Assembly (NCBI RefSeq): GCF_054482525.1
Contig: NZ_CM137006.1
DNA length: 64,000 nt
Direction: 5' to 3' (one strand)
Part shown: one piece after another, positions 1-16,566 of the stretch
How positions within the stretch are numbered: the stretch's first letter is position 1
Layout of the letters: each line of letters starts with the position of its first letter
The notes under the pieces: model-generated
Seen by the model: only the letters and a program-made list of their open reading frames with translations
Databases searched by the model: none
Told to the model about the DNA's origin: nothing
Position numbers and translations under genes: made by a program

Positions 1-267
1 CGCCGTTTCCTGTTCGAACTTGAGGCGTTCACGTTCGGACTGATACCAGGCCTTACGGTCATGTGGCTCCATTTCTTCCAGTGATGCCGGAACGGGAAGA
101 TCAAGAAAACAGGTCAGAATGTCAGTCACCCGATAGAGTTTCAGCTTGTCATGCCCTCCGGCTGGCTGGATGTTTTTCAGCCTTGCCGCCGCAGTCTGAC
201 GACATATTCCCGCTATCGCCGCCAGTTGATTAATGTTCAGCATCAGATTTTTCAGTTCTCGATCCAT
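1..267 (-). CDS. Putative terminase small subunit / packaging HTH protein, N-terminal part (gene continues past window start)
   Basis: Manual reverse translation from ATG at 267 gives MDRELKNLMLNINQLAAIAGICRQTAAARLKNIQPAGG..., an HTH-containing N-terminus resembling lambda Nu1-type small terminases. GGAG Shine-Dalgarno lies upstream. Not in the ORF track because it is truncated. Confidence 0.4.
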   Translation of the reverse strand, partial: MDRELKNLMLNINQLAAIAGICRQTAAARLKNIQPAGGHDKLKLYRVTDILTCFLDLPVPASLEEMEPHDRKAWYQSERERLKFEQETA

Positions 268-412
268 ACCCGCTCCAGAATGTTTTAAACATGCATCTTG
301 CGAACAACTTTCAGAAGAGGTCAAAAAATGCGCTATATGTTGAGCATAAAACAAGCAAAATTAACATGCCAAAAATAAAAATACTTAAAATTCAATACAA
401 TATGAAGATGAT

Positions 413-492
413 GATGACGAATGAAAATGCAAAAACTAGCCTTTTTCCGCGCCGCTCCCGCCCCGTGGCAGACCACTCCACCGGGAGGACCC
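413..492 (-). promoter_or_regulatory. Conserved satellite element, copy 1, between the capsid terminator and the terminase-like gene
   Basis: About 72 bp (421-492) roughly 90 percent identical to 2955-3026 and in the same orientation. Contains the inverted repeat CTCCCG...CGGGAG with a nested GTGG...CCAC. Confidence 0.4.
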
Positions 493-517
493 GTAAAAAA
501 GGCGGCTGTCGCCGCCC
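493..517 (-). terminator. Rho-independent terminator after the protease-capsid gene
   Basis: Hairpin GGCGGCTGTCGCCGCC (501-516) followed on the minus strand by a T-run (A-run 495-500 on plus), directly after the capsid stop at 524. Confidence 0.55.
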
Positions 518-523
518 TTGTTG

Positions 524-2437
524 TCATGCTCCACTCGATTTCAGTAATCCGCGATAATCGAGGGCCGCGACACCTGCATCTATGCGCACTTTCCAGGCGA
601 CACCATCAACAGTAAAGCCCACCTGCTCCTCAAGATATGGCGTATCCATACCATCAAGATAAGCGACTTCTATTGTGTCCATCCCCTTAGCTGCGGCTAC
701 ATACCATTCCTTGCTATTGGCCTTATCAAGACGTGGCTCAACAATTACTTCTGCCATATCTTTCACCACGTTAATGATGCCGGGGTTCTGATTGATAGTG
801 CTCTCATCACCAACCGGAAAGACTGATGACGATGACAGAATGGCGCGACGCGCGGCAGATTCCAGCGCGGCAGGGACCAGAACAAAAGCAGGGGTAATAT
901 TCAGTGAGTCGCCGTTAGCATCCTCCTGGAGGCGCATCAGCTTACGGGCTTCATCAAGCCCCACCATGTCCATATCCTTCGCAATAAGATTTTTATGATC
1001 GGCATGGAATAACGCTTTACCATCCGTAAATTTGCCGTTGCTGGTTAACAGAAGATAAACCAGATTACCTACTGTTCTGGCGGCCGCACGCCCCATCGCC
1101 ATGGGGATTGTAGTTAACTGGGTCAGGTCATCGTTGATAATGGCCTGACGGGTAACAGAAAAAATATTACCGTATGTGGCCAGCGCAATAGGTACACCTT
1201 TATCGCTGGTGGTGATGTATTTATATTCCGCACCTTCCGGTACTTTATCCAGCTTTGAAAAACCATTCAGACCAACGCGCTTTGCTTCATGAAAGTTTGA
1301 AAGCGATCCGGTACGCGTCCATTTCTGGAACGTTTCGCCGCTGTCCTGCCAGCCTTTCAGCACTGATTTTTCAGCACCACCAGCCAGAATATGAGAAAAA
1401 TCGCTGCTGCTGTGTGTGAAAGCTGCATTAACGACCTGCGAGCGATTTAAAAAACTGCCAACACTGATACCACGATCAGTTAGTGATGCCTGGGCCATTT
1501 CAAAAAGGCTCATCATCGCGTAAGGATTTCCCCGCTCTGGGCGTTCATACCCAAGACGAGAATAAAGCCCCTGACGAATTGCATCGCCTGTTATGTTCCC
1601 GTTACCGGCATAAATATGAGTCGGGATATTTTTATTGGATGGCGTGGACTCGCGCCCCAGCTCGTTCAACAACTTTTCACGGGCCATCTCCGGTGTACAT
1701 GATGCATCCTCCAGGCACGCCATTTTGATCCCGTCGTAACGACTGCCGAACAGGCTAAACACTTCACTTATTCCGTTGATGCGCTTCTGTTCATTACCAG
1801 CAATATTGGCTGCTCCCTGTGGCGGGGTAATCATTCCTTTAATGGTTTCAGGCATGTGTGAAAAATCTCCTGTGCGTTTCGATTCAATTCGCGCCATTGC
1901 TGTGACAGATGGCAACAATTCATCAGCAAAACCGTGCTTAAGGCATTCTTTCCCGTCCATCCAGGTTTCATCTTCCAGCATGGCGGTAATTTCCTGTGCT
2001 GATTTGCCCGTTTTTCTGGCATAAGCAGGGACTAACACGGTTTCCACCTTATCCAGCAAATCAGCATAATCACGCATATCACCAGCATTTCCGCCAGAGA
2101 TACCCCACGGCTTATGTATCATCATCATGGCGTTTTCCGGCATCACAACACGATCGCCAGCCATTGCGACAACCGAAGCCATTGAAGCCGCAACACCATC
2201 GATATAAACCGTAATTTCTGCCGGATGATTCCGTAACAGGTTATAGATGGCGATGCCTTCAAACACGTCACCACCTGGCGAATGGATCCGCAGGTCGATA
2301 TGTGAGACATCGCCCAGGGCTTTCAGGTCTTCCGCAAACTGCTTCGCGGTAATACCGAAGCCGCCAATTTCTTCATAGATGGATATTTCTGCCGCTCCGC
2401 GAACACCCAGCGCCTTAATGGTGTACCAGTGATTCAT
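524..2437 (-). CDS. Prohead protease (ClpP/S14-like) fused to HK97-fold major capsid protein
   Basis: 637 aa. N-terminal 200 aa carry ClpP-like motifs (GVAASMAS with the catalytic serine context, HKP histidine). The C-terminal ~400 aa resemble HK97-family major capsid proteins. Confidence 0.7.
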   Translation of the reverse strand: MNHWYTIKALGVRGAAEISIYEEIGGFGITAKQFAEDLKALGDVSHIDLRIHSPGGDVFEGIAIYNLLRNHPAEITVYIDGVAASMASVVAMAGDRVVMPENAMMMIHKPWGISGGNAGDMRDYADLLDKVETVLVPAYARKTGKSAQEITAMLEDETWMDGKECLKHGFADELLPSVTAMARIESKRTGDFSHMPETIKGMITPPQGAANIAGNEQKRINGISEVFSLFGSRYDGIKMACLEDASCTPEMAREKLLNELGRESTPSNKNIPTHIYAGNGNITGDAIRQGLYSRLGYERPERGNPYAMMSLFEMAQASLTDRGISVGSFLNRSQVVNAAFTHSSSDFSHILAGGAEKSVLKGWQDSGETFQKWTRTGSLSNFHEAKRVGLNGFSKLDKVPEGAEYKYITTSDKGVPIALATYGNIFSVTRQAIINDDLTQLTTIPMAMGRAAARTVGNLVYLLLTSNGKFTDGKALFHADHKNLIAKDMDMVGLDEARKLMRLQEDANGDSLNITPAFVLVPAALESAARRAILSSSSVFPVGDESTINQNPGIINVVKDMAEVIVEPRLDKANSKEWYVAAAKGMDTIEVAYLDGMDTPYLEEQVGFTVDGVAWKVRIDAGVAALDYRGLLKSSGA

Positions 2438-2643
2438 TGCTCCCCCCCAGATGCAAAACCATTCTTATCAAGCCACGCGTTAACCGCGTGTCTGACAATC
2501 TGCGCCGCACCTGGTAATGGTTGGTCAGGATGATGATTTATGTGGTCGATCCTGTACTGCTTAAGGCGCATAACGGTCTGCGCATCCAGATGAACGGAAC
2601 CACCTTTTACCTCGCCTGTGTTCAGGTCGTTAATACAATTCAC
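2434..2643 (-). CDS. Small hypothetical protein upstream of and overlapping the capsid gene
   Basis: 69-aa ORF with a GTG start preceded by AAGAGGAAG, overlapping the capsid start by 4 nt. Function unknown. Confidence 0.4.
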   Translation of the reverse strand: MNCINDLNTGEVKGGSVHLDAQTVMRLKQYRIDHINHHPDQPLPGAAQIVRHAVNAWLDKNGFASGGEQ

Positions 2644-2743
2644 AGTAACTTCCTCTTACTGACTAAACTGCGCGCATTATTGATCGATAAAAGTGGTAGA
2701 TAAACATATTTCTATCATAAAAATAGATTAATCAGATTCAGAC

Positions 2744-2769
2744 ACAAAAAAGCCGGAGAGAATCCGGCA
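2744..2769 (-). terminator. Rho-independent terminator (minus strand) inside the SSB-capsid intergenic region
   Basis: Hairpin GCCGGAGAGAATCCGGC (2752-2768) followed on the minus strand by TTTTTT. Confidence 0.5.
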
Positions 2770-2954
2770 TAAATATCCCGCCATCTGAACACGTTTTGCA
2801 CAGGCAACTCCATCTGGCAGGTGAAAAACAAATTTATTTATATATTTCAATTAATTGCAAACTGGTCTAATGACAGGGAGAAAAAAATATTGTACAGGTG
2901 AAAACAGAAATAACTTTTAATTATCAATAAATTACTACACATGCTGCCGCCGCC

Positions 2955-3026
2955 ATGAAAATGCAAAAACCAGCCTTTTTCCGCGACGCTCCCGCCCCGT
3001 GGCAGGTCACTACACCGGGAGGACCC
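2955..3026 (-). promoter_or_regulatory. Conserved satellite element, copy 2, between the SSB terminator and the capsid operon
   Basis: Direct repeat of 421-492. The same CTCCCG...CGGGAG dyad is retained. Confidence 0.4.
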
Positions 3027-3052
3027 ATAAAAAAGCCGGATTGCTCCGGCTT
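3027..3052 (-). terminator. Rho-independent terminator after the SSB gene
   Basis: Hairpin AGCCGGATTGCTCCGGCT (3034-3051) followed on the minus strand by a T-run, just 3' of the SSB stop at 3067. Confidence 0.55.
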
Positions 3053-3066
3053 CTGTTACTCGTTGC

Positions 3067-3489
3067 TTAAAACGGTATGTTATCCCCGTACGGATCATCA
3101 TTTCCCGCCTGTTGTTTTGCTCTGCTCAGTGCATCAGTAGCCTGCCCCTGTTGGCCTTTTTTGCCGCCCGGTCGCGCCGTTCTCGCACTGATTACGCTGT
3201 CTGCGATAACCTGCCAGCCCTGCCGCGTCTCCCCGTTCTGTCCGGTCCACTGGCTCACCTGCATGTTACCCGCCACGCTCAGGAGTTCACCCTTGCGGTG
3301 CTTTGCCAGTGCTTCGGCCTGTCTGCCAAACGCCAGGACGGATAACCACATCGTCGCCGTTCCGTCATCTGCCTGGCTGCACGGAAGTGGGACCGCCATA
3401 CTCGCCATCGTCATTTGTGTACCCTTGCTGGTGGTCTTTAACTGCGGGTCAGCCACCAGCCGCCCGTAAGCCGCTATCTGTGCTGTCAT
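3067..3489 (-). CDS. ssb: Single-stranded DNA-binding protein (phage/plasmid type)
   Basis: 140 aa. OB-fold core WLSVLAFGRQAEALAKHRKGELLSVAGNMQVSQWTGQNGETRQGWQVIADSV parallels E. coli SSB [52 protein letters not shown]. Gly/Gln-rich linker and acidic tail DDPYGDNIPF. Confidence 0.75.
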   Translation of the reverse strand: MTAQIAAYGRLVADPQLKTTSKGTQMTMASMAVPLPCSQADDGTATMWLSVLAFGRQAEALAKHRKGELLSVAGNMQVSQWTGQNGETRQGWQVIADSVISARTARPGGKKGQQGQATDALSRAKQQAGNDDPYGDNIPF

Positions 3490-3731
3490 GCTGTCTGCTC
3501 TCCGGTTTTAACGTTGATGGTTGTCACCTGTTCCGCTTCGGCAATCTCCCGTTCTGTCAGCGTGGCAAAGTTTGCAGCTGCCGTTGTCATGAATGAGCTA
3601 ATCAGTTCGGGATGTGCTTTCGCATATCCTTCCCCGGCGTTGCGGTCGATGATTTTTATCGACACCCTTAACCAGTGTTCCGTCAAATCAAGGGCGTGCG
3701 ATTGTGATTTTTTTGTGTGCTTCGCTGTCAT
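3486..3731 (-). CDS. Small hypothetical protein between the origin and ssb
   Basis: 81-aa ORF whose stop overlaps the ssb start (ATGA). No recognisable motif. Confidence 0.4.
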   Translation of the reverse strand: MTAKHTKKSQSHALDLTEHWLRVSIKIIDRNAGEGYAKAHPELISSFMTTAAANFATLTEREIAEAEQVTTINVKTGEQTA

Positions 3732-3782
3732 AGGCTTTATCTCACAGCAGTAAATTAAAATTTTTGCGTTTTAACCCTTCAC

Positions 3783-4005
3783 CTGTTCACCTTTTGATAT
3801 TTTATCTTTTAATTCATAATGTTAAGGGGTGAACAGTTTCACAAAAACTATTCACCAACTGTTCACCACTGTTCACCCTTGAAGCTCAATAAACAATCAA
3901 AAAGGTGAACAGTGAATAGTTTGGTGAACAGTTCATAAATAACTGTTCACCCTATAACATACTGATACAAAAGATATTTATGACAGGGTGAACAGTGGTG
4001 AACAG
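3783..4005. repeat. Iteron array, putative satellite origin of replication
   Basis: Nine copies of GGTGAACAG or its complement CTGTTCACC at 3783, 3828, 3859, 3869, 3904, 3923, 3943, 3987 and 3997, separated by AT-rich spacers, immediately 3' of the replication-protein gene. Confidence 0.7.
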
Positions 4006-4018
4006 TTATTCCATAAGT

Positions 4019-5851
4019 TTAATTTTTGCTATCGTCATTAGTGACCGATACACATGATGGCATCCAGTCTTCTGATTCCTCCGTCAGTGTCACGTTTGAA
4101 CGCAAACCGTGCTTCGTTTTCCGTTTCATATACTCCCTGCCATATTCCGCCATTGCCCCCGGCATATCTTTACCGAAGCGCGTCAGTGTTACAGGTTTAC
4201 CAAACCCATGTGCCCTCATATAAGCCAGATAGGCATGATAGAGATACCTGCGTGGGCTGAATGGCACAATTTCAGCATTACCCACTAACAGGCCATCACA
4301 CATTACCGACGCCATGAGATAGCCGCAGAAGTCCACCAGCGAATCACCTTCACGCTTTATCGCGAGTGCTTCTTCTGATTTCTGCTGCTCATATAAAAGG
4401 CGTCTGGCTTCGTCCTGGTCAGCAAACCGTGTAAGCAGATGGCGAATCACTACCGCCAGCTCACCTTCTATTTTTTCCGCCAGCATTGGATCACGTTCGT
4501 TCTCCGGTACAACTTCCGAAAAATTGAATATCACCCGACGACGTGAGATCCCCCCGCTGCGGTCACTGAATGACATGGCGTTATTGTTAACCGCCAGCAC
4601 TACTGCCGGAATACGCGTTGAGTAGGGGGCTTTGTGTTTCGGGTCAATTGCCACCTTGTCACCGCCTGTAATAGCCTTAATCCCTGCCCCATCACCAGCG
4701 TAGCGGGTCATATCCGGCATGATAATCAGCGAAAAGCCAACCACTAACGCGCGTTCCCTTGCATCTTCCAGCGCCTTCATGCTTGCCGATACTGTGTTGG
4801 CCTTACCCGCCAGCATGGTGCAAATCTCCGCCATCACGCTTTTACCACTTCCCCCTGGACCTGTTACCTCAATGAATAACTGCCAGTCGTACCGGTTCGC
4901 CAGCACCATGAATAATGCAGCCAGTACGCGATCCGCCTTGCGGTCATTCTCAGCCACCGAACGGCGTAACCACTTCCAGAAATTCGGCGCATGTGTTGCC
5001 AGCGTTTCCCCCTCTGCTGGTGGGCTGAAAGGTAATTCACTGGCAATTAACAACCAGTCGTTTTTGTTATGCTCCCGAAAATTACCTGTTCTGGTATCAA
5101 ATACCCCGTTACTGAATCCAATCAGGTTACGGGCTGTATTCCCCATTACAGGCAAACTTAACTTCATGGTATCGACCGCCGATTTAATGGCGTTCTGCGA
5201 ATAGCTGATCTCCGCATCAATGAAAATCTGTGCCATAGCTCGCTGTAATTCTTTATCCTGTACTGGCTCCCATACAACGCCGTTGTAATGGTGAACAGTG
5301 TCAGAGTCAGCATGAATCGCCAGTTCACCGCCATAATGTGCCAGGAGAACTTCGCCGCGTTGACTTGCTCCCATCTGGTTAAGCGCCAGTGATGAAGCGT
5401 TATCGTCTTTTACCCGCTCTTTTTTCTTTACAGGCAGTTCAACTACCTTTTTCTTTTCCGCCAGCTCTGCCCGTTCACGTTCCAGATATTCGCGCCAGTT
5501 CTCCCGTTTCTGGCTGTGCATTCCTTCAGGGTAATAATCAGCATCCCTGACACCTGCCGCTGCCAGTTTCTGCCCGATGGTATTAACAAGCCCCGGACGC
5601 AATAACCCCGCCTGATAGAGACGCACGCGATAGCGTCCGTCCGGTACGATTTGCAGGTTGTCCAGTTCGGCAAGTTGTTGCTCTCCAAGCCAGACAGGTG
5701 GCACGTTATCGCCAGCCAGTCGCCCGTCCTGTTCCTGCCACTGATTCGCATGTGCCCACGCATCACTACCCGCAAAAATGATGACTTCCGTCATTTTGTC
5801 ACGCGGCTGGTGTTTTAAATTTGGCGCTTTTTTCATTTCTGCTCTCTCCAC
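4019..5851 (-). CDS. Replication initiator, P4 alpha-like primase/helicase family (D5_N plus SF3 NTPase)
   Basis: 610 aa with Walker A GPGGSGKS and the general architecture of phage/plasmid primase P4-family C-terminal domains. Sits next to the iteron array. Confidence 0.7.
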   Translation of the reverse strand: MERAEMKKAPNLKHQPRDKMTEVIIFAGSDAWAHANQWQEQDGRLAGDNVPPVWLGEQQLAELDNLQIVPDGRYRVRLYQAGLLRPGLVNTIGQKLAAAGVRDADYYPEGMHSQKRENWREYLERERAELAEKKKVVELPVKKKERVKDDNASSLALNQMGASQRGEVLLAHYGGELAIHADSDTVHHYNGVVWEPVQDKELQRAMAQIFIDAEISYSQNAIKSAVDTMKLSLPVMGNTARNLIGFSNGVFDTRTGNFREHNKNDWLLIASELPFSPPAEGETLATHAPNFWKWLRRSVAENDRKADRVLAALFMVLANRYDWQLFIEVTGPGGSGKSVMAEICTMLAGKANTVSASMKALEDARERALVVGFSLIIMPDMTRYAGDGAGIKAITGGDKVAIDPKHKAPYSTRIPAVVLAVNNNAMSFSDRSGGISRRRVIFNFSEVVPENERDPMLAEKIEGELAVVIRHLLTRFADQDEARRLLYEQQKSEEALAIKREGDSLVDFCGYLMASVMCDGLLVGNAEIVPFSPRRYLYHAYLAYMRAHGFGKPVTLTRFGKDMPGAMAEYGREYMKRKTKHGLRSNVTLTEESEDWMPSCVSVTNDDSKN

Positions 5852-6132
5852 GCGGCAATCATGTTTTTCAGTTCCTGTAGTTTTTTATCAACATCCATAC
5901 ATGACACATGGTTATTTCTGGAAAGCGGGATTTCCCGCCTGAATCTGCTAATAAAGATCTCCACGTTCAGCGAACTATGAAATGAATAGCCATCACGAAT
6001 AAAATACACACGGTCAAACATCAGTTCTTTTACCGTTACTCTGTTACCGTTCTTATCCAGATAAATAGCGCCGGGGATAATTTTGGGGTGTGCATAACCG
6101 CTGGCAGTCAAGCCAGATAAATATGTTCTCAT
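5833..6132 (-). CDS. Small hypothetical protein of the replication operon
   Basis: 99 aa, Shine-Dalgarno GGGGA upstream, 3' end overlaps the start of the replication gene. Confidence 0.45.
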   Translation of the reverse strand: MRTYLSGLTASGYAHPKIIPGAIYLDKNGNRVTVKELMFDRVYFIRDGYSFHSSLNVEIFISRFRREIPLSRNNHVSCMDVDKKLQELKNMIAAWREQK

Positions 6133-6138
6133 GATTAT

Positions 6139-6451
6139 TTATCCCCGATTTGAATCAGTATTCGCTTTCTTTATGGCATTTAATGCATCTGTGGCATTTT
6201 CAATGGTGCACCGTAACGAAATATCAAACTGCCCAAGCATTGCCAGTAACAAACCGATATTACCCATATCAATGCGCATAGCCTTTTCGTCATAGTCCTC
6301 ATTTTCTGACGCATGCCACATCAGGCTACCAATTGACGCAATACCCATTGATATATTGTCAGTAGCCCCATCCGCAGCGGAATAAACCTTTTTAGCAATA
6401 TCATGCTCACAGTTAAAATGCGGATTAATCAGGTACTGGTAATTTGACATA
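6139..6451 (-). CDS. Small hypothetical protein of the replication operon
   Basis: 104 aa starting [15 protein letters not shown]. The ORF-track entry 6139..6894 is longer, but its 5' extension is Pro/Arg/Leu-rich junk. The ATG at 6451 overlaps the TGA of the upstream gene. Confidence 0.45.
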
Positions 6452-6991
6452 TCAGGCATGGCACACCCCCTGGCGAATACGGGCGGCGAATACAGCAACA
6501 CAACCGGACGGGCAGCGGTTACGCGCTTCACGTTCCGTCCAGGCGGTGACGTGGATGATTTGATGGTCTGACGCGCCAAAGATGATAAAGCGCCAGAGAA
6601 AGGCGGTTTGAGAATGTACAAGGGTAGGGATAGTAGCCATGTTGGCAGCCTCCTTTGACAGTGAAGAATTTCCACCGCAGGAAACGCCAATTTCGCTGGC
6701 GGTGGACTGAACGGGGTTGGCGTAACCGGCGTCAAAGGGAACCGGCGCTTCCGAAGAAGCCCCCGCCCAGCCCACCATAACTTTGATGTGAGCGAATGCG
6801 GACGATAAAAAAGACGCTGGCGCGTCATATATCGCCTTTGACATTTCCAGGACGCCAATCCCGGCACCAGATTTTGCTGGTGCGGATAAATCATAGCCCT
6901 GGCTTGCAGTGGCGATCAACTGGTTTTTTACACCCGCTTTATTCAGGTTGTGCGAGTCCCGCCCTTGCGGGTGTGTGGTATGATTTCTCAT
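6452..6991 (-). CDS. Hypothetical protein, first gene of the replication operon
   Basis: 179 aa from ATG at 6991 with GAGG Shine-Dalgarno. This is the 3' part of ORF-track entry 6452..7741, whose upstream part overlaps the operators and the plus-strand regulator gene. Stop overlaps the next start. Ala/Gly/Ser-rich, no recognised motif. Confidence 0.35.
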
Positions 6992-7088
6992 AGCGACCTC
7001 GATACTATCGTTATCGTTGGTGGTTAGAAGCCCCGTTACTGCTCCAACAGTGCGGGGTTTCGTCGTTTCTGCACCTTGCATCAACAAG

Positions 7089-7140
7089 GTGTTGAACACC
7101 AATGTAAACTCAGGTGTTGAACACGTCAAGTGTTGAACAC
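7089..7140. promoter_or_regulatory. Three direct copies of the 11-bp near-palindrome GTGTTGAACAC (operator array) in a divergent promoter region
   Basis: Copies at 7089-7099, 7114-7124 and 7130-7140, between the minus-strand operon start (6991) and the plus-strand small gene (7191). Confidence 0.5.
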
Positions 7141-7190
7141 TTGTTTTTTTTCCTGCATACTGCATTTGTTTTTTGTGAGGGGTACACAAC

Positions 7191-7370
7191 ATGGCGACAA
7201 AAGCAGTAAACGCAAAATCACAAACAGTTGCGGCAAGGGTTCCGCATGAAGTTATGAACAATGTTGAGGCGGTAAAAATGCCTGGTGAAAGTACAGGGCA
7301 ATTTGTAACAGCAGCATTAAAGCGAGAAGTTGAATACCGCCAGCGACGCAAGGCTAAAGAGCAAGAATAA
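7191..7370 (+). CDS. Putative ribbon-helix-helix DNA-binding regulator
   Basis: 59-aa [62 protein letters not shown] found by manual translation; it is below the ORF-track length cutoff. Strand-helix-helix pattern, directly downstream of the operator repeats. Confidence 0.4.
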
Positions 7371-7427
7371 TCACTATCAGCGCTGTGGTGTGAGGTACTC
7401 CGGCGCATTGCTTTACAGGTCGGCACT

Positions 7428-7637
7428 ATGAGCAAAAAATACCTATCCACTGAAGAGATTTTCGCAGAACAACGAAGATTGCTTTTACAGAGCATTGTTG
7501 CACGCCAGAAAGAAAAGGCACACGCTAAACAAATGCCACCAAATACAGAACCAGCGCCTACAAAATTTGCGCTTGATGAGTTTCTCAATAAACAGCCCCG
7601 GGTAATGAAAGCTAACAGGAACCGCCCACCAGGCTGA
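7428..7637 (+). CDS. Small hypothetical protein co-oriented with the RHH gene
   Basis: 69-aa ORF followed by a terminator. Confidence 0.3.
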
Positions 7638-7701
7638 TCACATTGCCCACCAGCCAGCAAATCGCTATGATGGCTGGGCTTATGTTTAGTGTATTCCCAC
7701 T

Positions 7702-7733
7702 GGCGACCTCTGATCCGGGTCGCCTTTGTTTTA
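7702..7733 (+). terminator. Rho-independent terminator, possibly bidirectional between the plus-strand genes and alpA
   Basis: Hairpin GGCGACC-tctgatccg-GGTCGCC followed by TTTGTTTTA. Confidence 0.5.
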
Positions 7734-7751
7734 TGTGTCATATGCCCCCCT

Positions 7752-7961
7752 TTACGCTGCCTTGCCTGAATTAATGCGATCCCGGCTTTTAACCCATTCC
7801 ATAACCTCGGACAGCAGCCAACCTACAGAACGACCGCCCAGATTACGGCGTGACGGGAAATTCCCTTTTTTCTCCAGTTCATAGCGTGTAGTGCGACACA
7901 CTCCAGTTAACTTACGACATTCATCCTCACGGATTACGCGATCTTCATTTATTTCACGCAT
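7752..7961 (-). CDS. alpA: AlpA/Vis-family transcriptional regulator (excision activator)
   Basis: 69 aa. KSVGW...E.EW core motif and size match AlpA of CP4-57 and Vis of P4. Position next to int is typical. Confidence 0.65.
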
Positions 7962-8380
7962 ACAAAAACCTACATAAAAAATTACGTATATAAACTTTTC
8001 TCTTAGCTGTAGATATATGAGATCGGATATTACTTAGATTCTTTTTTCACCTCTTAAATTAAAAACACAACCTTGCTAAAGGCTTTGTTCGCTAAGGTTC
8101 GTAGAAGCTCGTTAGTGTTTAAAATCGTGTCACGAGTTTTTAAGCGATGCAACAAAAAATGTCGTTATTTGGCATTACGCTTGAATTATCTCATTAAAAA
8201 CAAATAGATAAACCATCAAGTGTTGGAACAATCAAGAAACAGAGAATAAAAGTTCAGAAGAAGACATTCCAATTTTTTGATGGTTGACATATATAAAGCG
8301 AAGATATTTGCAGATATTTTCCGATATTCTACGATTTATTCACGGCTGTAATCTCTTAAAGAAAAAACAGCCGTAATTTG

Positions 8381-9619
8381 TCAAGAATTTTGGGTGTAAA
8401 TTCGCGGGGTCATAACAACGATTTTTTTATCATTGTTCTGGAGAAGCTCGAGACGGTCTACCCATAGATTAAGAGCATCACGTTTTGCATCAAGATAACG
8501 GGAGTGGTTATAGACTCGTTGCATCCCCGGCATCTGGTGGGCGGTAAGCTGCTCGACAATATGCGGATCCACGCCTAAATCGTTCAGCATGGTTGTAAAT
8601 GTGTGCCGGATATCGTGTAACGTCCAGGGGGCTTGATTAATTCGTCTGTGCGCTGTTCTTCCGTACTCTGCTACCGAAGATTGTCCTTTCAGTTCACCAA
8701 GCAATAAGCCTGTGTGTCTGTTCTGCTCCACCAGTTGCGTGACGAACGGCAAAATGCTTTCCGGTATTGGCCTGAATATGGCGACCTTCGTTTTGCTGTG
8801 CTCCTTCGGTACTGTCCAGAGCATTTCTTTAAAATCCCACTCCTGCACCTCAGAGCGCCTTAGCTCAGTGGTACGGCATCCAAAAACAATCAGGAGGCGA
8901 ATTAGGGCGCTGTAGTATGGCGGGAATATTTTGTCATCCAGGGCGCGGAGTAATTCCCCAAGCTCCTTATTTGTTAGTACGCGCTCGCTCACTTCTGCTT
9001 TTTTTCCCACATCACCGACAACCATATCATCAAGAACGTTGCTGATTGCGTATCGTCGTTTTCGGCAGTACTTAAGCGCCTGTTTGCATACCTGTAGCAA
9101 AAATCCGGCAGATACTGGGCTTCGCTTTGCCATCTGGTCAAAACATGCCAACCAGTGCCGTAGCTCGCATTTTTCCAACGGCAAAGCGCCAATCTGGCTG
9201 ATTATGTGTTTATTGATCCGGCTTTTCAGTGATTCGTAGTCAGTGCGCTTTTCCTTTGCATACGATTCAAGCCAGTAAGTGAGCGCTTCCTTAACTGTCA
9301 CGGGGGCTAACGCATCCTGTACAGCACGATTAAGCTCATAGCGCGGATTTTTCCCCTCAGCCAGCCAGGCGCGACACTGTGCTGCTTTTTCCCTGGCTGC
9401 TTTCAGGCTCAGATCGGGATAATTGCCCAGTCTCAGACGTTCCGGTGATACCTGCCTACCAGTTCCGGCCCTGTAAGTGAAATACCAGGTTAACAGGCCG
9501 CTGGTGGAATGTCTTACGCTAAGATTGCCACCGTCATTAAAAAAGGCGTTTTTTGTGGTTGGTGATCCGCTTAATTTTCGTAAAAGAGTGTCGCTAAGTC
9601 TATGAATTGCGCTGCTCAT
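8381..9619 (-). CDS. int: Tyrosine site-specific integrase (P4-type)
   Basis: 412 aa. C-terminal catalytic motifs HDIRHTF and RVYNHSRY (tyrosine nucleophile context), N-terminal arm-binding region. Confidence 0.85.
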   Translation of the reverse strand: MSSAIHRLSDTLLRKLSGSPTTKNAFFNDGGNLSVRHSTSGLLTWYFTYRAGTGRQVSPERLRLGNYPDLSLKAAREKAAQCRAWLAEGKNPRYELNRAVQDALAPVTVKEALTYWLESYAKEKRTDYESLKSRINKHIISQIGALPLEKCELRHWLACFDQMAKRSPVSAGFLLQVCKQALKYCRKRRYAISNVLDDMVVGDVGKKAEVSERVLTNKELGELLRALDDKIFPPYYSALIRLLIVFGCRTTELRRSEVQEWDFKEMLWTVPKEHSKTKVAIFRPIPESILPFVTQLVEQNRHTGLLLGELKGQSSVAEYGRTAHRRINQAPWTLHDIRHTFTTMLNDLGVDPHIVEQLTAHQMPGMQRVYNHSRYLDAKRDALNLWVDRLELLQNNDKKIVVMTPRIYTQNS

Positions 9620-10023
9620 GTTTCGCGTTTCCGGTCATCAAAATTAACTACACCATTGACTACACCGTGCATCGTACAAGGGCAAACCGTGACGAACAAG
9701 AGCGAACAAGGAAAACAAAATTTTCCTTTATAATCATAGCGATGAATGCACACAAAACACTACCACGAACACCCGCGAACACTAGATGATAAATAACTAT
9801 CATCTATCGTTGGCATCAGCGACATCTGTCACATTCCTGTCAATAGCGTTAACTGCTTCAAATTTTTGATTCATACCTGCCCCCTGGCCCCTGTCAAATG
9901 CTTGACGGCTCGCCCTAATTCTCTAAATTGTATTTCTAGAGTTGGCGAGGTTTTGAACAGCCCCCTCTCTGACCCCGGTTTATTCCATCTTACTTGTATA
10001 AGATTTGCGAAGGATGTCGAAGC

Positions 10024-10248
10024 ATGGAAAAGGGTACTGTTAAGTGGTTCAACAATGCCAAAGGGTTTGGTTTCATCTGCCCTGAAGGCGGCGGCGAAGA
10101 TATTTTCGCTCATTATTCCACCATTCAGATGGATGGTTACAGAACGCTAAAAGCTGGACAATCCGTTCAGTTTGATGTCCACCAGGGGCCAAAAGGCAAT
10201 CACGCCAGTGTTATTGTGCCCGTCGAAGTAGAAGCGGCAGTCGCATAG
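10024..10248 (+). CDS. cspD: Cold-shock-like protein CspD
   Basis: 74 aa starting MEKGTVKWFNNAKGFGFI with cold-shock domain motifs. ORF-track start trimmed to the conserved start. Confidence 0.85.
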   Translation: MEKGTVKWFNNAKGFGFICPEGGGEDIFAHYSTIQMDGYRTLKAGQSVQFDVHQGPKGNHASVIVPVEVEAAVA

Positions 10249-10320
10249 CTCTTCTGTCTCATTGTGTACATCCTAAAGGCAAAATGCCAGCCCGATCGGC
10301 TGGCATTTTTATCTCAAAAA

Positions 10321-13493: not shown

Positions 13494-14486
13494 ATGGTGA
13501 AATCGACGTCATGTATAACCATTGATTTCATGAATATGTCGCAGCTAACTGAACGGACCTTTACGCCATCTGAATCTCTCAGCAGCCTGTCACTTTTTCT
13601 TAGTCTGGCACGTGGACAGTGTCGGCCGGGTAAATTCTGGCATCGCCGTAGTTTTCGCCAGAAATTTTTGCTGCGCTCGTTGATTATGCCGCGTTTAAGC
13701 GTTGAGTGGATGAACGAACTTTCCCACTGGCCTAATCTCAATGTGTTGTTAACGCGCCAGCCGCGACTGCCTGTGCGTCTGCATCGCCCTTACCTTGCGG
13801 CGAATCTTAGCCGTAAGCAATTGCTGGAGGCGTTACGTTACCATTATGCGTTACTCCGCGGGTGTATGTCGGCGGAAGAATTCAGCTTATATTTGAATAC
13901 CCCCGGGCTGCAACTCGCGAAGCTGGAAGGCAAAAACGGCGAGCAGTTCACACTTGAGCTGACCATGATGATCTCAATGGATAAAGAAGGTGACAGCACA
14001 ATCCTGTTCCGCAACAGCGAAGGTATTCCTCTGGCAGAGATCACGTTTACCCTGTGTGAATATCAGGGGAAAAGAACAATGTTTATTGGCGGACTGCAAG
14101 GCGCAAAATGGGAAATTCCACATCAGGAAATCCAGAATGCGACGAAAGCCTGCCACGGGCTATTTCCCAAACGCCTTGTGATGGAAGCGGCCTGTCTGTT
14201 TGCCCAACGTTTGCAGGTAGAGCAGATTATTGCCGTCAGCAATGAAACGCATATTTACCGCAGCCTGCGTTATCGTGATAAAGAAGGCAAGATCCATGCC
14301 GATTACAACGCGTTCTGGGAGTCGGTTGGCGGCGTATGTGATGCTGAACGCCATTACCGCCTTCCGGCACAGATAGCACGAAAAGAGATTGCCGAAATCG
14401 CCAGTAAAAAACGGGCTGAATACCGTCGGCGCTATGAGATGCTCGACGCTATTCAGCCACAAATGGCCACGATGTTTCGCGGTTAA
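13494..14486 (+). CDS. ybjX: DUF535/VirK-like protein YbjX
   Basis: 330 aa in the conserved position between macA and ybjD. Confidence 0.65.
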   Translation: MVKSTSCITIDFMNMSQLTERTFTPSESLSSLSLFLSLARGQCRPGKFWHRRSFRQKFLLRSLIMPRLSVEWMNELSHWPNLNVLLTRQPRLPVRLHRPYLAANLSRKQLLEALRYHYALLRGCMSAEEFSLYLNTPGLQLAKLEGKNGEQFTLELTMMISMDKEGDSTILFRNSEGIPLAEITFTLCEYQGKRTMFIGGLQGAKWEIPHQEIQNATKACHGLFPKRLVMEAACLFAQRLQVEQIIAVSNETHIYRSLRYRDKEGKIHADYNAFWESVGGVCDAERHYRLPAQIARKEIAEIASKKRAEYRRRYEMLDAIQPQMATMFRG

Positions 14487-16141
14487 TCCGCGCGACCGCG
14501 CGCCAGCCACAGCACGCGTGAGAACATTTTTTTCAGCAGCGTCGGTACGGAGTCCACACCACGACGTCCGGCCTCCATTGCCACTTCAATGGCAAGATCG
14601 GGTTTGGAAGAGCGATGGATCGCTTTCGAGATAATTTTGCGCAGATTCATCGGTACATTTTCCGGGATTTGCGCCACGCGGTGGAACACATCGGAAAATC
14701 CCTGGCGATACATAAAATGTTCCATATCCAGCGCCGGTAACGCCGTTAAATGTTCTCGTTCGGCTTCCCGATCATTATTCAACAGGCTGCGTACCGTAGC
14801 GGCATATTTCTTCCCTGCTTCATCGCCATCGACCAGTACATGCCATTCAATCCCCATTCGCCGGGCAAATTTAACCAGTGGCTTTAGCCCGGACTGGGCA
14901 AACTCAATGACCTTGATCCCTTCGGCATCAAAATGATGTCCGCACTGACGCGCCAGTTCATTGATAACCCAGGTTTCCGTTTCCCCTTCCACCAGCAGCC
15001 AACAACGGGCAAACAGCGATGACGGACGGTTAAAACGAATGTGAAAGGATATGCGTCGGCTATCTTCGGTACTCAAGCCACTCGGTCCCAGACGCCAGGC
15101 GGCAACGCGAGAGGACTCACGTACCAGTCGGCAAACATGCTCTACCGGCGTTAACGAAAGCAACTCTCCCGAGTTGGTAGTAGCGATGCGCTGCAATGGC
15201 AGAAGGTTCAACAGATGCCAGGCAACTGAAAGCATAATGGGGTGTAAACGGGTTTCTGGATCTTCAATCAGCAATAATGGACGGGCGTCTTTATCCAGTC
15301 GCAATGTGCCTTTTGCCTGCAACAAAGTAGCAAACAGGCCGAGCAAAATAACCCGATACGAGCGCCCACCAGGTCGGTCAATCATCCGGTTGATGATATC
15401 CAGATAGCGCCAGCTTCGTTGCTCATTGCTGGCTCGCCGCCGCATTAAACGATATCGCGCCTGTCCGGCCCCCTGCTCAGAGAAATAATGCTCAAGCAGC
15501 TGTACCATTGCGGAAAGTCCCTGACGAATCTGTCCATCAGAGAGATTTTGCGGATGTGAGGACAACTCACGGGCGAGGAAATCGAGCTGGCGCGCGGTGA
15601 CTTCCACATTAGGGACATTTGGCACCGTGCCGTTACGAATACGGCGCATAAAACGGGCATCACGCAAGCGCAGCACCGGCATTAAACGCACCAGATGGCG
15701 TGCCTGATCGTTAATATCCTCGACATCAATCGGATGTCCGTCTTTATCGAGAAAACTGCGCAGTGTCATCACGCTGCCGTCTTCCGCACTCTCCCCTTCC
15801 AGACGATAAAAAATACGGTGATAGCCATCGGTGCATGGCGTCCAGCACGCTTCCAGCGGCCGATAGCGGCGTACCCGATGTCGGCCTGGCAGCGATTCGC
15901 GGAAGGTCAAAATAATATGCAGATGATGTTCTCGCCCGTTGATATCTCCCGGCGGGAACCAGAAATCGTCGCGCTCAAAATGGTAGAGATCTGATTCTGG
16001 CGATAGCAGCAGGGTTAAGGCGTCCAGCAAGCTGGATTTACCCCACGCGTTCTCCCCAATCAGGACGTTGTTTTGTTCCAGCATCAACGACAAACGGTTG
16101 ATACCGCGAAAACCCACAATTTCAACGCGCTCAAGAATCAT
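14483..16141 (-). CDS. ybjD: OLD-family ATP-dependent nuclease-like protein YbjD (AAA ATPase plus Toprim)
   Basis: 552 aa with N-terminal P-loop GENAWGKSSLLDA and conserved synteny. Confidence 0.75.
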   Translation of the reverse strand: MILERVEIVGFRGINRLSLMLEQNNVLIGENAWGKSSLLDALTLLLSPESDLYHFERDDFWFPPGDINGREHHLHIILTFRESLPGRHRVRRYRPLEACWTPCTDGYHRIFYRLEGESAEDGSVMTLRSFLDKDGHPIDVEDINDQARHLVRLMPVLRLRDARFMRRIRNGTVPNVPNVEVTARQLDFLARELSSHPQNLSDGQIRQGLSAMVQLLEHYFSEQGAGQARYRLMRRRASNEQRSWRYLDIINRMIDRPGGRSYRVILLGLFATLLQAKGTLRLDKDARPLLLIEDPETRLHPIMLSVAWHLLNLLPLQRIATTNSGELLSLTPVEHVCRLVRESSRVAAWRLGPSGLSTEDSRRISFHIRFNRPSSLFARCWLLVEGETETWVINELARQCGHHFDAEGIKVIEFAQSGLKPLVKFARRMGIEWHVLVDGDEAGKKYAATVRSLLNNDREAEREHLTALPALDMEHFMYRQGFSDVFHRVAQIPENVPMNLRKIISKAIHRSSKPDLAIEVAMEAGRRGVDSVPTLLKKMFSRVLWLARGRAD

Positions 16142-16566
16142 ATCCCCTCCAGAAATATGTGACTTATCCTTTACGCTGGCAGTATAACGGGAAAGGCCAT
16201 GCTAATACGTGATGACATCACATTTAAGCATGGCAAATGTCTGAAAAATGAGCGAATAATCGCGTTATACTCCCTCTTGCTGATAAGCCTGCAAAAACAA
16301 CAAAATCAAATAATTAGCATGATAAATTATTTTTTATTACGCCTAAAGGATTAAATCTTTTGCTTGCACTACACTGTCAATCAGACAAATGACTATATGG
16401 GGCAACCCGCTGTTGCCCTAAATCAAATTTACTGGATTTATTTATCTGGTGAATGACTCGCCTTCGTTTTTAAAATAGCCGCGCATTATTTCCGTCGTCA
16501 CTTTTTTACGACGACCCTATAAAACGACCATATTTTTCACAGGGTCAATTTTTAATTGAGGTGGAT

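Follow-up and report, generated by a model that had tools for sequence, protein, structure and literature searches.

Here, we describe ybjD, a gene in a 64,000-nucleotide stretch of contig NZ_CM137006.1 (assembly GCF_054482525.1; referred to below as the window), as a vertically inherited, syntenic core gene of the Enterobacterales that is under strong purifying selection and has no conserved partner gene. Its product is, with near certainty, a stand-alone protein of the OLD family, in which an ABC-type ATPase and a Toprim nuclease lie in a single polypeptide. The gene is already known, its family, class and first phenotypes all being published: it has counted as a Class 1 OLD since 2019 (PMC6755086) and was characterised in 2026 (PMC13261556), and a reading of the window made earlier from sequence alone was right that no new system is present.

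The open reading frame list places ybjD exactly at 14483-16141 on the minus strand, with an ATG start and 552 amino acids, and a GGAGG is found at 16146-16150, 4 nt 5' of the start codon. At the DNA level, the gene is 100% identical to that of Escherichia coli PCN033, where it is annotated as 'ybjD: ATP-dependent endonuclease'. In Pfam, residues 1-375 cover the entire DUF2813 profile (E 2e-160) and an OLD-like Toprim domain is matched at residues 376-440 (E 4e-16), with weaker P-loop matches to AAA_15, AAA_21 and SMC_N limited to the Walker A region (residues 1-60); NCBIfam gives sub-threshold P-loop matches only. The top PADLOC profiles are GajA (7e-80) and Old (2e-24), and the AriA profile covers residues 1-51 only. 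The features of the locus are as follows.

14483-16141, minus strand: ybjD (proposed name oldB) coding sequence, 552 codons plus stop (open reading frame list, translation, 100% match to PCN033 ybjD)
15662-16141, minus strand: N-terminal lobe of the ABC-type ATPase, residues 1-160, with Walker A GENAWGKSS (K35) (Pfam, P2 Old alignment)
15302-15661, minus strand: helical insertion in the ATPase, residues ~161-280, presumed dimerisation domain (AlphaFold 2 model, low conservation)
15011-15301, minus strand: C-terminal lobe of the ABC ATPase, residues 281-377, with Walker B E293, D-loop H300 and H-loop N323 (hhalign to P2 Old)
14762-15010, minus strand: Toprim nuclease core, residues 378-460, with E385, E389, D438 and D440 (Pfam OLD-like_TOPRIM, P2 Old alignment)
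14486-14761, minus strand: C-terminal helical region, residues 461-552, with D472 and E474 (presumed metal B) and K513
16142-16566, no strand: divergent aqpZ-ybjD intergenic region, with the ybjD ribosome-binding site and presumably its promoter (sequence read)
14483-14486, no strand: 4-bp overlap of the convergent 3' ends of ybjD and ybjX (open reading frame coordinates), which is context and not a functional partner

Predicted catalytic residues and fold

A profile built from 64 diverse relatives of YbjD aligns with the founding Class 1 protein, P2 Old, over 415 columns at 98% probability (hhalign). In this alignment K35, E293, H300 and N323 of YbjD correspond to K37, D299, H306 and H332 of P2 Old, which mutagenesis has established as its Walker A, Walker B, D-loop and H-loop residues (PMC7049728), and the nuclease residues E385, E389, D438 and D440 correspond to E398, E402, D453 and D455. 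The alignment ends short of the second metal site, and D472, E474 and K513 are placed in the nuclease site as putative members from motif order and near-invariance. Among 115 family sequences, each of these seven nuclease residues is 96-100% conserved, so that the Toprim of YbjD bears a complete predicted two-metal site, composed of E385/D438/D440 and E389/D472/E474 together with K513.

The ATPase motifs are kept to a similar degree in the same 115 sequences, with K or R at the Walker A lysine in 111, E or D at the Walker B position in 111 and H at the D-loop position in 113. The H-loop position, Asn323 in YbjD, is variable (N in 72, H in 18, Q in 13, Y in 9), and the literature describes Asn here as a frequent variant of Class 1 OLD proteins; the idea that the exchange of His for Asn marks a dead ATPase was therefore rejected. 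When conservation is averaged by segment over 114 family representatives sharing less than 50% mutual identity, Toprim residues 378-460 are the most conserved, with a mean identity to YbjD of 55%, and the helical insertion is the least conserved, with a mean of 15%.

The AlphaFold 2 model of YbjD on the family alignment is confident (predicted local distance difference test score, pLDDT, 88; predicted template modelling score 0.87), its sole less certain part being the insertion at residues ~161-280, where pLDDT is lower. Here, four to five helices are inserted between the strands at 156-159 and 289-293, and their position would match that at which Thermus OLD has its four-helix dimerisation domain (PMC7049728). 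The overall predicted fold resembles solved full-length OLD proteins, the nearest being GajA, Thermus OLD and retron-Eco8 OLD. The assignment of an OLD-family ATPase with a Toprim domain, as first made from sequence, is thus borne out by Pfam, PADLOC profiles, fold and the P2 Old alignment; the domain comparison with the OLD classes that had been proposed alongside it supports membership of the family but cannot tell Class 1 from Class 2, and it is gene context that decides the class. The 'Class 1' status of YbjD accordingly rests on its genomic context.

Inheritance, selection and neighbourhood

That ybjD is a conserved chromosomal gene, as had been noted, is seen most directly in E. coli, where 5424 of 5426 complete genomes carry it at full length, with 96-100% nucleotide identity. 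Beyond the species, amino acid identity to YbjD falls with taxonomic distance, from ~90% in Salmonella and Citrobacter to 86% in Klebsiella, 65% in Yersinia, 56% in Proteus, 45% in Aeromonas and 43% in Vibrio. A scan of one genome per species yielded over 500 confirmed relatives, and context was analysed for the best 80 loci. These span ~40 genera and all belong to the Enterobacterales, with the exception of one record labelled Chryseobacterium, and tblastn with the E. coli neighbours recovers the block hcp-lysO-(aqpZ)-ybjD-(ybjX)-macAB throughout them, incomplete patterns being mostly due to truncated loci; the Yersinia locus is fully syntenic. Full-length relatives also occur in Vibrionaceae and Aeromonas, and the Vibrio ortholog stands alone amid unrelated genes, with no ybjX and no helicase. 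The record labelled Chryseobacterium (sp. 18061, CACSKA010000002.1) is a 647-kb contig bearing an 86%-identical, fully syntenic enterobacterial ybjD, and looks mislabelled.

The search was extended to mobile DNA. No full-length YbjD relative was found in 50,697 phage records, the sole match being a 98-residue N-terminal fragment, and a phage origin was rejected on this basis. The fragment comes from OR845570.1, which is 2,060 bp long and is catalogued as 'Escherichia phage ECO95 1-6-1'; as it contains the first 98 ybjD codons, this record holds host DNA. Among the plasmid records listed, the full-length matches outside Escherichia lie in records of 500 kb or more, probably chromosomes or chromids filed wrongly, and several multi-megabase 'plasmid' records of PLSDB with ybjD are evidently chromosomes. 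The same records include four near-identical E. coli ybjD copies in entries of 42-88 kb and a 64%-identical copy without its first 51 residues on a Serratia conjugative plasmid, beside ybjX and macA; otherwise, true plasmids carry only relatives of at most 30% identity. Two such plasmid relatives that were inspected are Gabija-type pairs of an OLD protein and a helicase, one of them adjoining an integrase on an E. coli IncF/IncN plasmid. Taken together, ybjD belongs to the syntenic core of the order and is inherited vertically.

A separate group of relatives from sequencing-run assemblies (P0149, P0162, P0163, P0165, P0175 and P0206) is far larger, at 1,000-1,900 amino acids. These giant proteins combine DUF2813 and Toprim with large inserts after Walker A, at the position of the SMC/Rad50 coiled coil, and with C-terminal extensions of 400-1,100 amino acids that have no Pfam match; one is encoded near polA, with a 1,020-residue unannotated open reading frame in between. 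They were considered as Rosetta-stone fusions to a known partner, and this was rejected, the additions being only ATPase inserts and Pfam-less extensions.

Sequence divergence within and beyond Escherichia gives a measure of constraint. Against E. albertii, the ratio of nonsynonymous to synonymous substitution rates (dN/dS) of ybjD is 0.014 at a dS of 0.82, with 28 synonymous and 0 nonsynonymous differences in the Toprim core, and the comparison with a cryptic Escherichia clade gives 0.034 at a dS of 0.16, a value no higher than those of macA, macB, lysO and ybjX. Overall, the ratio ranges over 0.014-0.04. Towards Salmonella and Citrobacter dS is saturated, making those ratios approximate, but dN can still be compared: against Salmonella it is 0.064 for ybjD (0.013 for the Toprim), 0.066 for lysO, 0.066 for hcr, 0.114 for macA, 0.106 for macB and 0.374 for ybjX. 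Purifying selection on ybjD is strong, and is strongest on the nuclease domain.

These data bear on the suggestion that YbjD could be an orphaned Gabija-type (Class 2) GajA without its GajB, persisting as a functionless or decaying remnant. The GajA profile does score far better than the Old profile in PADLOC, and Class 2 OLD proteins are nested within Class 1 diversity (PMC12796447), which makes a shared origin of YbjD with some GajA lineage plausible. However, decay is excluded by the strength of purifying selection and the invariance of the catalytic residues, no helicase lies beside ybjD in the best 80 loci or the Vibrio context, and no GajB partner was seen in three distant DUF2813 contexts, where contigs are short. 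Any loss of GajB would be older than the Enterobacterales, and we consider this explanation wholly improbable.

In the window, ybjD is flanked by the divergent aqpZ and the convergent ybjX, and farther out are macA, macB and cspD to one side and, to the other, lysO, hcp, hcr and poxB. All neighbouring genes were identified, and none is a helicase, a reverse transcriptase or a separate nuclease; PADLOC defence models match none of the neighbours, with ybjX and the low-GC genes included in the test. A hidden RNA partner or retron was rejected, as an Rfam scan of 9-19 kb gives the cspD leader only. This leader and its gene (9919-10312, plus strand) match the Rfam cspA thermoregulator below the gathering score (41.6 versus 78 bits, E 4e-8). 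The aqpZ-ybjD intergenic region has no match to the sigma-70 consensus, and no LexA box (CTGT-N8-ACAG, at most one mismatch) lies upstream of ybjD, the count across the window being that expected by chance; SOS regulation was rejected for want of such a box.

Among the neighbours, ybjX (VirK/DUF535; 13530-14486, plus strand) was considered as a partner, in that the two genes might form a two-gene unit, either as a functional pair or as a mutually exclusive excludon switch. The 4-bp overlap of their 3' ends is present in Salmonella too, the ends are at most ~25 bp apart in most species having ybjX, and the pair is among the convergent excludons detected by RNA-seq (PMC12288877). Against this, ybjX is absent from K. 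pneumoniae, which retains ybjD, it is missing in at least 12 of the 80 species, where macA directly follows ybjD, and it is missing from the Vibrio context. The two also evolve at very different rates, with 57% amino acid identity and a dN of 0.37 for ybjX against 90% and 0.064 for ybjD in the Salmonella comparison, and ybjX has no PADLOC match. For the repeated loss and the difference in rate, ybjX was rejected as a partner, and the two-gene unit is very unlikely; antisense regulation is possible where both genes coexist, with obligate partnership largely refuted. Since aqpZ, like ybjX, is missing in some species, ybjD is a single gene without a conserved partner, which matches the published Class 1 assignment and agrees with the earlier remark that no partner is obvious: its neighbours are aqpZ and a ybjX that is dispensable across species, with no helicase, retron or split nuclease. 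Two further observations concern ybjX itself: it evolves far faster than all its neighbours, and, where it is present, its 3' end runs into that of ybjD or stops just short of it, so that separate terminators have no room.

The sequence-only reading had also placed ybjD next to two horizontally acquired regions. Both regions are real; neither is adjacent, the distances being 4.7 kb and 12 kb, and neither is related to ybjD. The right junction of the first, at ~9785-9793, is separated from ybjD by the 4.7 kb and five core genes. The second is a low-GC (0.33) gene at 28221-30020 on the minus strand, between ybjQ and ybjP, encoding a 599-residue pentapeptide-repeat protein. PCN033 has an identical ybjD and lacks the first element, and because ybjD keeps the same position in genomes without either region, its proximity to both is incidental. 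The first element occupies 1-9790 of the window, at the site lying between yljB/cspD and clpS in PCN033, and extends past the left end of the window. Of 5426 complete E. coli genomes, only 50 contain at least 80% of a query covering 1-10,300. Its genes look like those of a capsid-encoding phage satellite:

8381-9619, minus strand: integrase
6452-7741, minus strand: Ash-family protein
4019-5851, minus strand: D5-type primase/helicase
3067-3489, minus strand: SSB
524-2437, minus strand: fusion of a ClpP-like prohead protease and major capsid protein

The pentapeptide-repeat gene at 28221-30020 is intact here, is annotated as a truncated pseudogene in PCN033 and has no PADLOC match. A low-GC stretch at 59-63 kb (GC 0.40-0.44) was considered as a third island and rejected, as its genes (59000-63000) are ordinary chromosomal ones, encoding a GAPES2-GGDEF cyclase, a CHASE9-EAL phosphodiesterase, a peptide-transport permease and a radical-SAM protein.

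Phage phenotypes and the native role of YbjD

YbjD entered the OLD literature as the query with which Schiltz et al. collected OLD homologs in 2019, the E. coli and Salmonella genes being placed in Class 1 as single isolated genes, and most Class 1 homologs purifying poorly (PMC6755086). The K-12 protein (b0876) was then the subject of a micropublication by Atahualpa et al. in May 2026, which proposed the name oldB (PMC13261556). In that work, the Keio deletion of ybjD was viable, so the gene is non-essential, and susceptibility to 68 BASEL phages was unchanged. Arabinose-induced YbjD reduced plaquing of Bas18 and Bas20 and gave smaller plaques of Bas64-68 at a non-toxic inducer level, and was toxic at higher induction. 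These phenotypes survived deletion of the Toprim and were lost on deletion of the ATPase domain, and the K35A variant retained them with higher toxicity; the effect was RecBC-independent, and YbjD, unlike P2 Old, spared recBC(ts) cells (PMC13261556). The phage challenge proposed from the sequence has thus already been published, with a split outcome: loss of ybjD leaves defence unchanged, and only its overexpression inhibits a few phages, weakly and without need of the Toprim. Elsewhere, ybjD serves as a mere landmark for strain construction, its transcript is modestly induced in uropathogenic E. coli under a cathelicidin-derived peptide, and the protein is listed in a Salmonella proteomic dataset. 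Counts based on DefenseFinder find Class 1 OLD proteins in 0.45% of genomes (PMC12392090), a figure so low that these counts evidently do not treat the order-wide ybjD as a defence system.

One interpretation of these phenotypes is that YbjD is a genuine stand-alone anti-phage protein fixed in the core genome, whose ATPase senses a phage cue and whose action aborts or slows infection, an effect that at native expression would show only with phages or conditions other than those tried so far. This would fit its best profile matches, to GajA and Old, and the closeness of its fold to GajA, Thermus OLD and retron-Eco8 OLD, as well as the overexpression effects on Bas18, Bas20 and Bas64-68 and the toxicity at higher induction; other Class 1 proteins, namely P2 Old and Vc OLD, defend alone, and an effector would require just such an intact, highly conserved nuclease. 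However, deletion is without effect on the 68 BASEL phages and the nuclease is unneeded for the only anti-phage phenotype seen (PMC13261556). Synteny, near-universal presence and a dN/dS of 0.014-0.04 are also unlike accessory, fast-turnover defence genes, and ybjD lies outside defence islands, while neither phages nor true plasmids carry a close relative. We regard resident defence as a serious possibility, though one that we would not expect to prove correct. Measured against an operational definition of an anti-phage system, ybjD falls outside it, being core and syntenic, with no PADLOC match in its neighbours and a published deletion without a phage phenotype, though native-level protection against other phages is conceivable.

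As to mechanism, YbjD is probably an ATP-gated two-metal nuclease, a view drawn from Thermus OLD, GajA and P2 Old together with the K35A result. The protein would dimerise, or form a higher oligomer, through its helical insertion, and ATP binding in the ABC head would hold it in a restrained state; the greater toxicity of K35A (PMC13261556) fits this proposal. A nucleic-acid or protein cue might then free the Toprim to cut nucleic acid, where possible forms of cutting include a DNA nick or 5'-3' exonuclease activity, as in the Thermus and Vibrio OLD proteins, or tRNA cleavage, as in P2 Old.

The native job may be a conserved, cell-intrinsic surveillance or processing of nucleic acid, for which the nuclease is required and which may act collaterally against phages, as opposed to mobile arms-race defence; on this account, which we judge evenly poised, the weak anti-phage effect of overexpression belongs to the ATPase domain and is not the native function. 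A cell-intrinsic role is favoured by near-universal presence, order-wide synteny, vertical descent and purifying selection at a housekeeping level, and likewise by the lack of ybjD on mobile elements and in defence islands, a deletion with no phenotype, and a conserved nuclease set against a Toprim-independent phenotype. Indeed, the Toprim is the most constrained part of the protein yet dispensable for the published overexpression phenotype, which suggests that the native function has escaped the assays made to date. A more specific and more tentative form, to which we would lean away from committing, is that YbjD is domesticated, a bacterial counterpart of the archaeal protein Cran1, fixed in the ancestor of the Enterobacterales for a host nucleic-acid transaction, with the anti-phage effect an overexpression side-effect of the ATPase head. 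The invariant Toprim would then serve a host task, for example the resolution of aberrant DNA structures or the processing of RNA.

Several points weigh against a cell-intrinsic role. To our knowledge, all bacterial OLD proteins characterised so far act in phage defence, and core genes may themselves be antiviral, examples being RecBCD and the dGTPase Dgt. The dN/dS ratios towards Salmonella and Citrobacter are approximate, as described above, and the upstream region holds no LexA box or other regulatory clue tying ybjD to DNA repair. Relatives are the source of the oligomeric state, ATP gating and substrate proposed for YbjD. No housekeeping phenotype is known, the gene being non-essential with a viable Keio deletion, and overexpression, even where the inducer level is not toxic, does make Bas18 and Bas20 plaque less well and shrinks the plaques of Bas64-68 (PMC13261556). 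The remaining interest of YbjD lies in what its invariant nuclease does at native expression; as a discovery, the gene carries little weight.

YbjD among known OLD systems

The protein described here is the same gene product as E. coli K-12 YbjD, with the same length (552 amino acids), neighbours (aqpZ and ybjX) and motifs, K35 included, and with no substantive difference; what this strain has in addition is the satellite-like element at a distance of 4.7 kb. The structural archetype of Class 1, Thermus scotoductus OLD (PDB 6P74), is 21% identical to YbjD and a weak sequence match (E 1.7e-3), the ATPase of YbjD being of the DUF2813 subfamily. P2 Old, a tRNase activated in RecBCD-compromised cells, shares its domain order and alignable catalytic residues with YbjD, but is distant in sequence (28% identity over 198 amino acids, and a match to only ~90 DUF2813 positions) and has His in place of Asn at the H-loop. 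It is also prophage-borne where YbjD is core chromosomal, it kills recBC(ts) cells, which YbjD spares, and it requires both domains, whereas the overexpression phenotype of YbjD has no need of the Toprim (PMC13261556).

The remaining classes differ by their partners or architecture. GajA of Gabija (Class 2) has the UvrD/PcrA/Rep-like helicase GajB adjacent, in most cases as an overlapping downstream gene, which is found neither here nor in 80 orthologous loci, and the Gabija pairs of E. coli lie on plasmids beside integrases and are ~25% identical to YbjD. Class 3 (retron-associated) OLD proteins need a reverse transcriptase and a retron non-coding RNA, neither of which is at the ybjD locus, and in Class 4, or PARIS (AriA-AriB), ATPase and Toprim are split between two proteins, YbjD being one polypeptide. 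Within Class 1, the Vibrio cholerae Vc OLD, a DNA nickase countered by Oad1 of phage ICP1, is stand-alone and RecBCD-independent like YbjD. It is, however, sporadic and gives strong defence that needs its ATP-binding residues, whereas YbjD is core, its deletion is silent and K35A keeps the phenotype.

The closest parallel in mode of inheritance is Cran1 of Saccharolobus, an OLD-family ATPase-nuclease that forms a taxonomically homogeneous, vertical clade with conserved active sites, and that apparently acts outside antiviral defence, with a role in cell-cycle progression in this archaeon (PMC12796447). The same reasoning on taxonomically homogeneous OLD clades was used in that study before the cell-cycle role was shown (PMC12796447). 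Cran1 differs in being essential and archaeal and in having a helical insertion in its Toprim, YbjD being non-essential, and the two are linked in sequence only at the superfamily level. YbjD warns that family membership alone is not evidence of a defence system, and makes a reasonable test case for whether OLD proteins in bacteria also act outside defence, as Cran1 does in archaea.

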